Source: Escherichia coli O127:H6 str. E2348/69 (GTDB taxonomy: Bacteria > Pseudomonadota > Gammaproteobacteria > Enterobacterales > Enterobacteriaceae). Taken from it: a stretch of DNA of 64,000 bases. Location: the NCBI RefSeq assembly GCF_000026545.1, contig NC_011601.1. One strand, given 5' to 3'. Made by a program: the position numbers. Shown here in pieces: positions 15,901-21,900 of this stretch; position 1 is the stretch's first letter; each line of letters starts with the position of its first letter.

Positions 15901-18900
15901 GCTTTTGTTTTTATCTTTGCCCTCCGTTTTGGTAATCTGAAGTCATAGGTTATTTGACCTGGAATGTTTGTTAATCCAATGAATGGATGGTTAATCTATG
16001 AAACTGAAAAAACTCCCTGGGTTCAGTTTAGGATTTATTGCTCTGGCGGTGGGTAATGTATATGCAACACAATTGTTGGATTATTATAGTATAATTTCCT
16101 ATATAACCGATGAAGAATCACCGATTGAAATTAGAAATAATACTTCTACAAGTAATGGAGAGTATCTAATCACTTAAGACGAAAGCCATGCTGTGAAAGT
16201 GGATGACGGTGTAACTGGATATATACATAATGCCAGTGTGATGACTAGTGGTGATGGATCTTATGGTATTTCTGTTGATAGCCAAAACAAAGTATTATAT
16301 ATAAGCGATAGCAATATTAAGACCTCTGGAAGCGTATCTGATAAAGAAAATGGAGGGATAACAGCCAGCGCAGTAGTCAGTGAATTTGGTGGCACCATCG
16401 TTATGAATGGTGATAATTCAGTCGAGACGAGGGGGCATATTCAGCGGGATTTTTAAGTCAGGTTAATGATTCTGGGACTGTGGAAAATAACACCAGTCTT
16501 GAAACCACAGATAAAACGAACATTGTTACCTATGGGGAAAATGCAGTAGGAGTTCTTGCATGTTCAAGTCCTGGAGAGTCTCGAACATGTGTTGATGCTG
16601 TAGGTGATGAAGTTTGTGATTCTAACAGTTACGAAGTTATTAGCCGTGCTGATTTAAAAATGAATGGTGGTTCCATAACAACTAATGGTTTTAATAGCTA
16701 TGGTGCTTATGCTAATGGGAAAAAAGCATATATTAATTTAGATTATGTGGCACTTGAAACTGTGGCTGATGGAAGTTATGCAGTTGCTATTCGACAAGGT
16801 AACATTGATATAAAAAGTTCTATTACAACAAATGGCACTAAAGCCCCCATTGCAAAAATATACAATGGTAGAGAGTGATTTTTTTCCTATGTCACTTCAG
16901 AATCAACAGAAACGTCTACCCCCGTCCTGCGACCCGAAGCTGGCAGTTACGTCGCCAACCTGGCAGCCGCTAACATTCTTTTTGTTATACGTCTGAACGA
17001 CCGTGCGGGTGAAATGCGCTATATCGATCCTGTAACTGAACAGGAGCGTTCAAGCCAACTTTGGCTACGTCAAATTGGCGGGCATAATGCCTGGCGTGAC
17101 AGCAACGGACAGTTGAGAACGACCTCGGCACAGGCCATCTGGATGGGCGTCGATCATAATGCGCATACGGAAGCCAATGGCTCACGTATTGAGAATGACG
17201 CAAATAACAACATCCAGAGCCGACTTGGTTTCCGCACCTTTATTCGTACTCAGGAGAAAAACAGCGGTCCGCACGGTGACGACTTTGAACCTTTTGTTGA
17301 AATGAACGGGATCCATAACAGTAAAGATTTTGCTGTCTCAATAAACGGTGTGAAAGTTGAACAAGACGGGGCGCGTAATCTGGGGGAAATGAAACATGGC
17401 GTAAATGGCAATCTGAATCCGGCGGCCAGCGTCTGGGGTAATGTGGGCGTGCAGCTGGGTGATAATGGCTACAATGACACCGCAATGATGGTGGGCCTGA
17501 AATATAAGTTCTGATCCCGCCCGTTAGCTAAAAAACCGCGTCGAATTCATCGACGCGGTAACATATGAAATATTATTTTTTGCCGATAGCACGCATGGTG
17601 TCATCAATTGCCGTGATCAACAGCATTTGCGGATCTTTAGCGCAAACCTGATTCAGTTTTTCTACCACTTTGGCGCTCAGTTCCGGAGATTGCTCAATTT
17701 TTAAATCACGGCTGGCAACGCTGGCATTACCCATTACCGCAACAATTTCTGCAACCTGTGCGCTGTCAGTTTTTGCCATTTCGTTGGCTTCTGCGCAAGT
17801 AATATAGGTTTCTGATGGCAAACCGTTCTTAATATTGTAGTCCTGCGCCCAGGTCATTGGTGCGAAAACAAACAGACCCGCCAGTAAAGCAAATTTTTTC
17901 ATCATCATTCCTTATTTCATTTTACCCAGAATTGCACCACCCGTACCGCCAATCACGGCACCTTTAATCGCCCCTTCGAGGCCATTGCCGGTCAGAACGC
18001 CAGTGACAGCACCAACGGCGGCACCCACTTTTGCACCTTTACGCGCATTTTTACCGTCGCGGCCTTTTTCTGTTACTGCACCAACACCAGCGCCAACAGC
18101 TGCACCTTTCAGTACGCCATTAACACCATTGCCAGTAAGTAAACCAACGCCTGCACCTAGCAATGCACCTTTCGTGGTGCGATTCATATCCGCCATTGCT
18201 GGCGTGGAGCAGAACAATGCTGAGATAAGCCCGAAGGCGAGTATTTTTTTCTTCAACTTAGTTGTCCGGTATTAAGTAAGTTGCACACACAATAATTTCG
18301 TCTTCAATTAAGATCTGCTTAACTAAAGAACGCTCGCTATTATTCAGATAATTCAAAATGAGCGTGACTGTGATGATAGGAATTATGTTTTTTACGGGAA
18401 TGAGAATAATCTCAAATGAGAAATAACTCATTGATTGACAATATTTTTATTCAAGAAGTGTCATTGACTGTTAACGCAATGTTGTAAAGGTAAGATAATC
18501 TGATTTATCAATATTATTGTGTGATTGTTATGTGAGCAGAAGATATTCATTAGCAACGATTACATTAGTCATTTTATTTTGTGGACGGCCTCATTGTCGA
18601 AAAATAAGCGTACGACAGTATTATCAGAAAAGAGTGATTTTTTATCCAACAACACTTCAGCGCACTGCGTTTAAAAAATACCTCTTTCTTATACGGGATA
18701 TCATCATTTCATCATGATGTCTTTGATGAGCGGTGAACACAATACATTTGCGCTGTCTCTTCAGGATGAATCCCCTGGTCTGGTTCCTGCGGGCTGATGT
18801 TGCAGCAGAGCTAAGGTCACTTAGACGCTACTATCATTTATCCAATGCATGGAATCGAAGTCAGTCGATACCCGCAGTATATATCGTGAACTGGGCGCAA

Positions 18901-21900
18901 CGCTGAGTTACAACATGCGTCTGGGGAACGGTATGGAAATTGAACCCTGGCTGAAGGCGGCTGTGCGCAAAGAATTTGTCGATGATAACCGGGTGAAGGT
19001 GAATAGTGACGGTAATTTTGTCAATGATTTGTCGGGCAGACGTGGAATATACCAGGCAGGTATTAAAGCCTCATTCAGCAGTACGTTAAGCGGGCATCTC
19101 GGGGTGGGTATAACCGTGGTGCCGGTGTGGAGTCCCCGTGGAATGCGGTGGCCGGTGTGAACTGGTCGTTCTGACCATCAACGATTAAACTGCGCTTCGG
19201 CGCTGTTTTCGTTTACCGGGTGCTAAAAGGGAAAATTCTGGGGCAAAAAAAGCCCGCCAGTTACGGCGGGAAACCTCATCCTATGGGAGAACAATGAATA
19301 ATGAAATTGCGGGGTTATCATCTCCCAGGATACCCATGCTAACGATAAGGTTATTTACTCAACCAGGCGTAAACATTTTGTTCTGTGCGTGGGAACAGCC
19401 TTAAGGTGTAAAGGGGGAGGGGGAAATAGCAATGAATAGTATCAGCAAGAATACTCGCCGCTTTACCACAACGTGGATGAGAGGGATGAAAAACTCAAGG
19501 CAGAGATGACTCTGCCTTGAAGATAAATGCGCTTTTACAGGGGGCTTATTTCAGCTCTTCTGCTTCCGGTAAGGTCACGTTCAGCTCAAGAATAGAAATA
19601 TCGCCATCTTTTTGCTCAAGCTGTACGGTTACCATCTCAGGATCAATTTGTACATATTTACAAATGACCTCAAGAATATCTTTACGCAACTGCGGCAGAT
19701 AATGCGGTTCTGCATCGCTGCGACGGCGTTCAGCAACAATAATCTGCAACCGTTCTTTTGCAATGTTGGCTGTGTTTTTCTTCCGCGAGAGAAAGAAATC
19801 GAGTAATGCCATAATTTATCCTCCGAACAAGCGTTTGAGGAAGCCTTTCTTCTCTTCTTCAATGAAGCGGAAAGGACGTTCTTCTCCCAACAGACGTTCT
19901 ACGGTATCTGCATAGGCTTTACCCGCATCGGCGTTAATGTCGAGAATGACCGGTTCACCCTGGTTAGAGGCGCGCAATACTGATTGATCCTCTGGGATCA
20001 CGCCGACGAGTTTGATGCGCAGGATCTCCAGCACATCTTCCATGCTCAGCATGTCACCTCTGCTTACGCGGCCTGGGTTATAGCGCGTTAACAGCAGGTG
20101 CTCTTTAATCGGCTCTTCGCCATTTTCTGCGCGGCGTGATTTCGACGCCAGAATGCCTAAAATACGGTCAGAGTCGCGTACTGAGGAGACTTCCGGGTTG
20201 GTGGTAATAATGGCTTCGTCTGCAAAATAGAGTGCCATTAACGCACCGGTTTCAATCCCTGCCGGGGAGTCACAAACGATAAATTCAAAATCCATCGCTT
20301 TCAGATCATCAAGAACTTTGGCGACCCCTTCACGAGTGAGGGCATCTTTATCGCGAGTTTGCGATGCCGGAAGAATATAGAGATTTTCAGTACGTTTATC
20401 TTTAATTAACGCCTGGTTTAGCGTTGCATCGCCCTGAATGACGTTGACGAAATCGTAAACGACCCGGCGTTCACAACCCATAATCAGGTCGAGATTACGC
20501 AGGCCGATATCAAAATCTATCACGACAGTTTTCTTTCCCTTCTGGGCCAAACCAGTGGCGATGGCCGCGCTGGAGGTTGTCTTACCAACACCCCCTTTGC
20601 CCGAAGTAACAACAATAATGCGTGCCATAGAAATTCCTTGTTAAAAAGGGATCAATTTAACGGTTGAACGGTCAAAGCGTTTTCGACTAACTGCAGTCGT
20701 GCCGCTTTGCCATAAAATTCTGCTGGGATTTGATCACTCAGCCAGTATTCACCTGCGATGGACACCAGTTCCGCCATCAGGTTCGTACAAAATATTTGCG
20801 TTTCCCGGTCACCACTTGCCCCTGCCAGCGCACGACCGCGCATCATGCCATAGACATGAATGTTACCATCGGCAATCAATTCGGCCCCAGCGCTAACGTG
20901 GCTTGTAACAATCAGATCACATTGTGGAGCATAAATACGCTGACCGGAACGCACTGGGGTATCAATTAAACGCGTTTTTGTGACCGGCGTTGTATTTTGC
21001 GCTGGAGCCTGCGGTGCGGGGGCTGGACGCGGCGCTTTTTCCTTTCCTTCCGTCAGGATAGGCAGCCCCATCTTTTCAATTTCGGCTTTAAGTTGCGCAT
21101 CTTTGCAGCCACTTACGCCAATAACCCGCAAACCAGTTGCCGAAACCGCCTTATGCATCGCTGACCAGTTTACCGGGTCTTCCAGTGCACTGACGTTGAG
21201 TACAACGGGGGCATGTTTTAAAAATGCGGGGGCCTGAGCGATTTTGTCTTCCAGCGCCTGATGGATAACCTTAGGTTCTGCCTCATGCAGATGAACCACA
21301 GATAAAGTGAAGCTACTGCCTTTAAGCTCGATTGGCGTGTTTGACATCCTGGCCTTACTCAATTAGCTATTAATCATCGCCAGCGCGCGATGATGTTCCG
21401 AAGACTATAAGGCATGTTATAGTCTGGATTATATTGAGGCAAGTCACCCTCCCATTTATTCAGAGTAAAAGTCTATTCTGTGATAAATGGCGCTGATTCA
21501 TAGCTTAAAAAATACCCTTGTCAATCAACCCATTGCCGTCGTACTTTTGATTGTTCTTATTTACGCTTCATTTTTCCGCACCCTAATCGTGACAGCATCT
21601 TCAGACCTGTTTAAATATCCAGTGTTGAGGCGAGTGTATTTTTTCACCACGCCAGGCTTTCTTAACTTTCCATTTTTTGCAGCATCATTAAAGAACAGAT
21701 ACCCGTTATCTTAATATCCGCCACAGAATTGCTCTATCATAGAAACCGCAGAAGACGTCTGATACTTCTGTCAGGTCATCGTAACTCGTCCAGGTCAGCG
21801 GTTTTGATTACGGATTGATGATGAAATGAGCATAAGTGTTGTACGGTTGGATTATCAGGATGTGCTATGAATATGATGCGTATTTTTTATATCGGATTGT

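Follow-up and report, generated by a model that had tools for sequence, protein, structure and literature searches.

Relics of two autotransporter genes, ycgH and ycgI, around ymgD-ymgG-ymgI in Escherichia coli E2348/69

Our analysis of a window of 64,000 nucleotides (the whole stretch of DNA that we analysed) from Escherichia coli O127:H6 str. E2348/69 (assembly GCF_000026545.1, contig NC_011601.1) concerns two gene remnants, ycgH and ycgI, and leaves us highly confident that both derive from classical autotransporter genes (type Va, AIDA-I-like), of which they are non-functional relics, on either side of ymgD-ymgG-ymgI near minCDE. The order of the locus is ymgF, the ycgH remnant, ymgD-ymgG-ymgI on the minus strand, ymgJ, the ycgI remnant and minE-minD-minC, an arrangement that K-12 MG1655 also has. 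That ycgH and ycgI are decayed autotransporter genes had been proposed from the DNA without database searches (below, the sequence-only reading), and this is borne out by the Prokaryotic Genome Annotation Pipeline (PGAP), by Pfam matches to the beta-barrel and by a map of lesions against intact genes. In RefSeq, PGAP gives 16894-17514 and 18832-19174 as frameshifted or incomplete pseudogenes of an 'autotransporter outer membrane beta-barrel domain-containing protein', and tblastn matches to the proteins of strain C1, together with conserved synteny, establish the homology to autotransporters. The decay as such is already known, the pseudogene annotation of both genes being long-standing, and it is biologically ordinary. 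As far as can be judged from their sequences, neither remnant can make a secreted adhesin.

What ycgH has lost is best seen against its intact form, which is carried by many E. coli: a protein search with the repaired YcgH of K-12 returned proteins of 882 or 887 aa named 'autotransporter YcgH', one identical full-length sequence being recorded on 585 contigs. In the bovine strain C1 (NZ_CP010116.1) ycgH is an intact coding sequence of 2664 bp and 887 aa (WP_001563811.1; 2467988-2470651); the sequence-only reading had proposed looking for an intact version of the locus in another strain, and C1 supplies one in each slot, this YcgH and a gene for 1130 aa at the position of ycgI. Intact YcgH has the pertactin domain PF03212, the AC_1 domain PF18883 and the beta-domain PF03797. 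The ancestral gene would thus have encoded an autotransporter of 882-887 aa with a signal peptide, a beta-helical passenger, an autochaperone and a 12-strand barrel. The NCBIfam models for MisL, the ECSE_1600 family and YfaL/EhaC, which are type Va autotransporters of the AIDA-I type, match the barrel and autochaperone of YcgH strongly, but with scores under the cut-offs of those families; TIGR01414, a generic model, is the only one to pass its own, and we rejected YcgH as an equivalog of any of the three.

In E2348/69, alignment to ycgH of C1 and K-12 gives a remnant of 1517 bp (15998-17514; plus strand, as for all parts of ycgH and ycgI below), broken into four open reading frames (ORFs) at 15998-16177, 16193-16456, 16480-16878 and 17014-17514. 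The first begins with MKLKKLPGFSLGFIALAVGNVYA followed by TQ, whose typical signal-peptide look was judged by eye only, continues for 36 residues and is ended by TAA (16175-16177), an AAA>TAA change at reference codon 60. ORFs 1 and 2 lie in one frame, separated by this stop, and ORFs 3 and 4 lie in one frame, separated by a second premature stop, TGA at 16876-16878 (TTA>TGA, reference codon 300). The sole net frameshift is a 1-bp deletion in a G run at 16431-16432 (reference nt 450); a loss of 3 bp at 16811-16816 combines 2 bp missing at nt 836 with 1 bp missing at nt 831. The sequence-only reading had described a signal-peptide ORF plus three frame-shifted pieces: the four ORFs do exist, but only one net frameshift is involved, the other interruptions are stops, and the biggest lesions, two in-frame deletions of 735 and 393 bp, had been overlooked.

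These two deletions remove whole domains. The 735-bp deletion (junction 16895/16896, reference codons ~306-551) takes out both the AC_1 autochaperone (aa 410-526) and the pertactin domain (aa 432-536), and the 393-bp deletion (junction 17126/17127, reference codons ~628-759) takes out about the first half of the beta-barrel (PF03797 spans aa 606-865). The C-terminal half of the barrel survives at 17128-17514, with 95% aa identity to residues 760-887 of C1 YcgH; it matches PF03797 over positions 139-254 of 255 (E 4e-9) and TIGR01414 over 307-432 of 432, and it ends in GLKYKF before the stop codon, so that the last piece had rightly been seen to close with the KYKF of a beta-barrel C-terminus. 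According to the lesion map the residues of C1 YcgH that are kept are about 1-305, 552-627 and 760-887, and tblastn of C1 YcgH against the window matches aa 1-311, 552-628 and 760-887 (E 3.6e-144, 3e-74 and 2.6e-40); the retained parts have 87-95% aa identity to intact YcgH, and 376 codons are gone. Pfam and NCBIfam give no domain match for the N-terminal and passenger pieces in the window. A length difference of 15 bp at nt 352, common with K-12, reflects the 882- and 887-aa intact forms and is no lesion. The window copy therefore has the same signal peptide and the same C-terminal KYKF as intact YcgH, whereas it lacks AC_1, pertactin and a full PF03797 barrel, and two in-frame stops, one net frameshift and two deletions deprive it of a single ORF running from signal peptide to barrel.

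How old are these lesions? We compared five B2-type ycgH alleles, those of E2348/69, A25, UPEC132, Z0117EC0013 and ATCC 25922. The codon-60 stop is found in all five, the deletion at ~16431 occurs in each of the other four, and the -2 at nt 836 is common to the B2-type alleles. The TGA at codon 300 is present in A25 and Z0117EC0013 and not in UPEC132 or ATCC 25922, and the additional -1 (nt 831) is confined to E2348/69 and its close relative A25; private lesions of the other alleles are a +1 at nt 326, a -1 at nt 2407 and a -11 at nt 58. Five lesions are common to all five alleles and would therefore have been present in their common ancestor, namely the codon-60 stop, the -1, the -2 and the deletions of 245 and 131 codons; the gene in E2348/69 would later have gained its further -1, the second stop being common to only some B2-type strains. 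On this comparison ycgH was probably already dead in the common ancestor of the five alleles, with decay continuing since. Homology, lesions, population frequencies and intact alleles are matters of direct observation, and it is the order of events that we infer from them.

Could the interruptions instead be errors of sequencing or assembly, or laboratory mutations of one strain, in genes that are really intact? Some of the sites are error-prone, that at ~16431 lying in a G run and those at ~16811-16816 and, in ycgI, ~19106 in short A/G runs. However, positions 15900-19300 are 100% identical in three independent E2348/69 (O127:H6) assemblies (NZ_CP059840.2, NZ_LT827011.1 and NZ_LT903847.1), and thus no continuous ORF is restored by resequencing, which the sequence-only reading had named as the result that would speak against decay. 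Moreover, four other strains also carry both large ycgH deletions, the codon-60 stop and the frameshift at nt 450. In the wider population, a 120-bp probe over the 735-bp junction has a contiguous match in 1042 of 5426 complete genomes, among them Nissle 1917, ATCC 25922, uropathogenic E. coli (UPEC) and ST131-type strains, and the ycgI junction described below is found in 4598. Identical assemblies and population-wide junctions exclude the error hypothesis, to which we give practically no weight, and together with the lesion map they demonstrate real disabling lesions relative to an intact orthologue. By their recognisable strain names the 1042 genomes look like phylogroup B2. The 393-bp segment that E2348/69 has lost is found in 4025 of the 5426 genomes.

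The same slot in K-12 holds a ycgH (b4491) that is likewise an autotransporter pseudogene, though with a different history. It is near full length at 2648 bp, and its lesions are a premature TAA (CAA>TAA, codon 512) and the loss of 1 bp at nt 2589; no disabling lesion is common to K-12 and E2348/69, the K-12 lesions being different from and independent of those in E2348/69. Across E. coli the slot holds at least three types of passenger allele: the YcgH type, a generically annotated type, which is split in the phylogroup B1 Shiga toxin-producing E. coli (STEC) strain E2865, and an 'ECIAI39_1904 family' type, which has an internal stop in the one strain examined.

The second remnant, ycgI (18832-19174), represents the last ~114 codons of a 1130-codon paralogue of ypjA/ehaD and ends in GVNWSF before the stop codon (alignment; tblastn with the C1 protein, E 8e-54). 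It is preceded at 18478-18831 by the upstream part of the ancestral gene of this locus, including ymgJ (18532-18717), with 87.6% identity to the 385 bp that precede ypjA in K-12. The remnant carries 1-bp deletions at ~18847 and ~19106, and once these are repaired the tail matches PF03797 over 164-254 (E 6.5e-11) and TIGR01414 over 331-432 of 432. The earlier description of ycgI as an isolated beta-barrel tail stands, but the end assigned to it, 19160, is the stop of an out-of-frame continuation after the deletion at ~19106, the homologous end being at 19174. With its 5' end deleted ycgI has no start codon, signal peptide or passenger, and with two 1-bp deletions besides it has no continuous ORF. 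A complete barrel is found in neither remnant (PF03797 139-254 of 255 in ycgH, 164-254 in ycgI), the terminal F being kept in both, as KYKF and NWSF.

In strain C1 the interval between ymgJ and minE contains an intact coding sequence of 3393 bp (WP_073473204.1; 2472003-2475395), named by PGAP 'adhesin-like autotransporter YpjA/EhaD'. Its product of 1130 aa combines six AIDA repeats with a pertactin domain, a long linker of Pro-Asn repeats and a beta-domain that is complete. Alignment of K-12 and of E2348/69 to the C1 locus (L005; L numbers are our locus labels) stops in either case at 13077 and resumes at 16162, with an identical junction. This is a deletion of 3084 bp which begins 36 bp ahead of the start codon and reaches codon ~1016; it lies at 18831/18832 in the window and has essentially no microhomology. 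We propose that this one deletion joined the ~350 bp lying upstream, ymgJ included, to the final 114 codons of the 1130-aa paralogue, and that the deletion allele then gathered different frameshifts in different lineages. A probe over the junction has a contiguous match in 4598 of 5426 complete genomes (about 85%). No more than ~440 genomes contain the deleted DNA at ≥95% identity (~390 by an evenly spaced sample), most of the other matches being the true ypjA at ~92%. K-12 ycgI (b4521, 344 bp), likewise annotated as an autotransporter pseudogene, in the same slot and with the same junction, has a -1 at tail nt 110; the 1-bp deletions of the B2-type alleles are at nt 16 and, in some, also at nt 276, and A25 has a stop codon instead. 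The frameshifts of ycgI thus differ between K-12 and E2348/69.

The relation of the ycgI-locus gene to ypjA is close. Residues 578-1526 of YpjA (K-12 b2647, 1526 aa) have 80% aa identity to the C1 protein; at the DNA level ypjA and the C1 gene are 94-96% identical over the 3' 2.5 kb and 86% identical over the 5' end and ~390 bp upstream. The 3' end of ypjA is 95% identical to the ycgI tail in the window and its upstream region 88% identical to the upstream DNA in the window, the ypjA-like block extending over 18478-19184. From these identities we take the ycgI-locus gene to be a close paralogue of ypjA/ehaD, one which lies beside minE whereas ypjA lies beside prophage CP4-57; in NCBIfam no dedicated YpjA/EhaD hidden Markov model is matched above cut-off by the ycgI-locus protein. 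The similarity extends to ymgJ and its surroundings (window 18478-18831; L005 12723-13113; L013 8757-9112), which share 86-88% identity with the DNA preceding K-12 ypjA, and ymgJ would therefore lie within the same duplicated block as the autotransporter. By the same token there should be an unannotated ymgJ paralogue upstream of ypjA. Since the ycgI-locus DNA has no second match elsewhere in the E2348/69 chromosome, this strain appears to lack ypjA too.

Some autotransporters are phase-variable, and one may ask whether these genes are still expressed through programmed frameshifting, read-through of stops or slipped-strand switching at the G run. The ycgH -1 frameshift does sit in a short G tract (GGGTGGGG versus GAGGGGG). 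However, the two in-frame stops and the second indel of ycgH would also have to be bypassed, and even a fully read-through product would still be without the autochaperone and pertactin region and without barrel residues ~628-759. As for ycgI, it lacks a start codon, a signal peptide and a passenger. Moreover, lineage-specific lesions keep accumulating, as is expected without selection. Coexisting stops, multiple indels and deletions that remove domains rule out programmed frameshifting and phase variation, and we regard this mode of expression as exceedingly improbable.

Decay without constraint is also what we read from the rate of divergence. Between E2348/69 and K-12 the identity is 95.0% for ycgH, 96.2% for ycgI, 95.7% for ymgJ and 93-95.7% for adjacent intergenic DNA, compared with 98.8% for ymgD/ymgG and 99.2% for minD/minE among the intact neighbours. 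The remnants thus seem to drift at about the intergenic rate under relaxed constraint; to this neutral-like identity are added the continued lesions, with lineage-private indels or stops in the ycgH or ycgI remnants of E2348/69, UPEC132, Z0117EC0013 and A25.

These data bear on a further alternative, that fragments have been exapted, the 59-aa ORF or the 87- and 132-aa pieces of ycgH as small proteins, or the ycgI tail with its flanking DNA as a 3' region or a regulatory element of minCDE or ymgJ. It could draw on the fact that PGAP calls the ycgH fragments coding sequences, on the very wide spread of the ycgI deletion allele, and on a library screen in UTI89 in which the enrichment reached from minCDE into the ycgI homologue, although its authors allow that this may be mere linkage (PMC6206680). 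Yet the boundaries of the ycgH fragments vary between B2-type strains, the ORF sets of ATCC 25922 and UPEC132 being different, the frameshifts and stops of the ycgI tail differ in K-12, E2348/69 and A25, and the divergence of the remnants is at the intergenic level. Rfam contributes no match either (at E<=1 over the region only a meaningless snoRNA match far below threshold), Pfam and NCBIfam recognise nothing in the N-terminal pieces, and promoter-like sites are not above those in shuffled sequence, the scan finding only the expected terminators of ymgD and minE. We therefore consider exaptation very unlikely. 

Several points nevertheless weigh against reading both genes simply as dead relics of the history given above. 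The PGAP annotation keeps three ycgH fragments within 15998-16878 as 'hypothetical protein' coding sequences (WP_000768524.1, WP_024173775.1 and WP_029694415.1), calls which, inside a pseudogene, are apparently artefacts of annotation. Upstream of the 59-codon signal-peptide ORF is a region bound by sigma-S RNA polymerase in K-12 (PMC4447067), and transcription or translation of ycgH or ycgI fragments may still take place, the loss of expression being, like the order of events, a part that we infer. Phylogroup B2 was assigned to the 1042 genomes from names and not from phylogeny, and the ~400 genomes counted as having the full-length gene at the ycgI locus are an approximation, true ypjA cross-matching at ~92%. 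In A25 the 132-aa fragment even carries the PGAP name 'porin' (L010 781-1179).

In the literature K-12 ycgH appears under 'pseudogene - autotransporter', with a chromatin immunoprecipitation peak of sigma-S RNA polymerase (PMC4447067), the UTI89 homologue of ycgI is called a pseudogene (PMC6206680), and YpjA and YcgV are grouped with biofilm-forming adhesins like AIDA-I and Ag43 (PMC9289746). A few targeted full-text searches found no paper that characterises the function of YcgH, YcgI or the intact ycgI-locus paralogue; ycgH is mentioned in several K-12 metabolic-engineering papers.

The two slots are in further states elsewhere in Escherichia. Scanning GTDB species representatives with a YmgD motif as anchor returned five loci, four of them informative, with E. 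fergusonii, E. marmotae and E. ruysiae not sampled. E. albertii (L014 4802-6037) has no ycgH and, in the ycgI slot, the start of a divergent autotransporter with AIDA repeats; Escherichia sp. E1V33 (L017 5467-8109) has an intact YcgH orthologue of 880 aa (65% identity) and an empty ycgI slot; E. whittamii (L018 4270-4404) has only the last 44 codons of ycgH and an empty ycgI slot; and in SCPM-O-B-8794, labelled E. coli and a separate GTDB representative, both slots are empty. Within E. coli, O157:H7 strain 7.1_Anguil (L006 8599-9345) has a ycgI-slot gene truncated in another way, with 747 bp (249 codons) left; this remnant abuts a GCN5-related N-acetyltransferase (GNAT) fragment, ompT and an IS66/ISEc8 element, and the ymgF-ymgJ side lies elsewhere in the chromosome, indicating a rearrangement at the slot. 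Different lesions at these slots are thus found in K-12, the B1 STEC strain, the ECIAI39_1904-type strain, O157:H7 and E. whittamii, and the 3' tails vary in length, from 44 codons of ycgH in E. whittamii to 114 codons in the ycgI slot of most E. coli and 249 in O157:H7. In several lineages the surviving 3' tail adjoins a convergent neighbour. What the empty-slot genomes lack (L005 12780-16868) is almost the same stretch as the ypjA-homologous block (12723-16516), and this suggests that ymgJ and the autotransporter moved or were duplicated as one unit.

Could, on the other hand, one of the remnants have been retained? The near-fixed ycgI deletion allele, in which ypjA-like upstream DNA with ymgJ is joined to a barrel tail of 343 bp convergent to minE, or the sigma-S-associated 59-codon ORF of ycgH might have been kept for a new role. 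Candidates would be a secreted small peptide, or an antisense or 3' element acting on the expression of minCDE or ymgDG. Separately, the varying lengths of the 3' tails might be a trace of selection against deletions long enough to cut into the terminators of convergent neighbours. We think these readings very improbable and offer them as speculation.

More generally, the decay of ycgH and ycgI is species- and genus-wide and recurrent. The sequence-only reading had instead spoken of surface adhesin genes as eroding consistently in this lineage. The loci are indeed dead or absent, the three autotransporter loci examined in the window (ycgH, ycgI and the ycgV site) all being non-functional or empty, but the erosion is specific neither to the lineage, nor to enteropathogenic E. 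coli (EPEC), nor clearly to adhesins. As a trait of the lineage it fails on the ycgI deletion, which at 4598 of 5426 genomes including K-12 is an old, near-species-wide event, and as a trait of EPEC on the ycgH deletions, common to 1042 genomes that include Nissle 1917, ATCC 25922 and UPEC. Furthermore, pseudogenisation in the window is not confined to adhesins, because pdeG, hlyE, cvrA and hflD are also flagged as broken.

For ycgV the earlier claim that the gene is missing proved correct. In K-12, ycgV (2868 bp) lies between dhaR and ychF, and comparison with K-12 shows that this interval of 3740 bp is replaced in the window by 409 unrelated bp (53336-53744); tblastn with YcgV and blastn find no trace of ycgV anywhere in the window. 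The 409-bp segment has an ORF at ~53379-53555 on the minus strand for a His/Pro/Gly-rich protein of 58 aa (WP_001409776.1) with a lipobox-like LSAC motif. The gene is found in 3936 of the 5426 genomes and the 409-bp alternative in 1295, together nearly all. As a case of erosion ycgV is equivocal: unrelated DNA stands at its site, and the gene may have been lost or may never have been present in this lineage.

The two relics matter little alone. Nevertheless, ycgH of E2348/69 is far more degraded than that of K-12, with two domain-removing deletions present in ~1040 other genomes, and the ypjA/ehaD paralogue of which ycgI is the stump survives intact in a minority of strains, roughly 7%. The slots that flank ymgD-ymgG-ymgI show recurrent differences across Escherichia in the presence or absence of an autotransporter, in its truncation and in replacement of its allele. 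For RefSeq, the practical consequence is three spurious 'hypothetical protein' coding sequences, and a spurious 'porin' in one strain, inside the wreck of ycgH; for catalogues of adhesin repertoires, the state of the lesions would be a better score at these loci than presence or absence.

Between the remnants, and part of neither, ymgD, ymgG and ymgI (17573-18431, minus strand) are intact with 98.8% identity to K-12, and they are conserved in E. albertii, E. whittamii and Escherichia sp. E1V33. The terminator scan places a terminator-like hairpin of the convergent ymgD at 17535-17559 (minus strand), 21 bp past the ycgH stop. Of the other broken genes, pdeG (ycgG, a cyclic di-GMP phosphodiesterase) at 14357-15256 aligns over 894 of 1524 K-12 nt and is recorded by PGAP as missing its N-terminus (the N-terminal 630 nt). 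The hemolysin E gene hlyE is a C-terminal remnant of 324 bp at ~24750-25073 (L001 14851-15174), and is full length in C1 and O157:H7. For cvrA (a K+/H+ antiporter; ~34640-36310) and hflD (~5123-5761), PGAP records each as incomplete with its C-terminus missing. Finally, the interval between treA and ymgE (~39271-45697; L002 18322-24748) contains a cluster annotated as an iron ATP-binding cassette (ABC) transporter, with substrate-binding protein, FecCD permease and ATPase, and further as an S-adenosylmethionine (SAM) methyltransferase, ModD and a TonB-dependent receptor.

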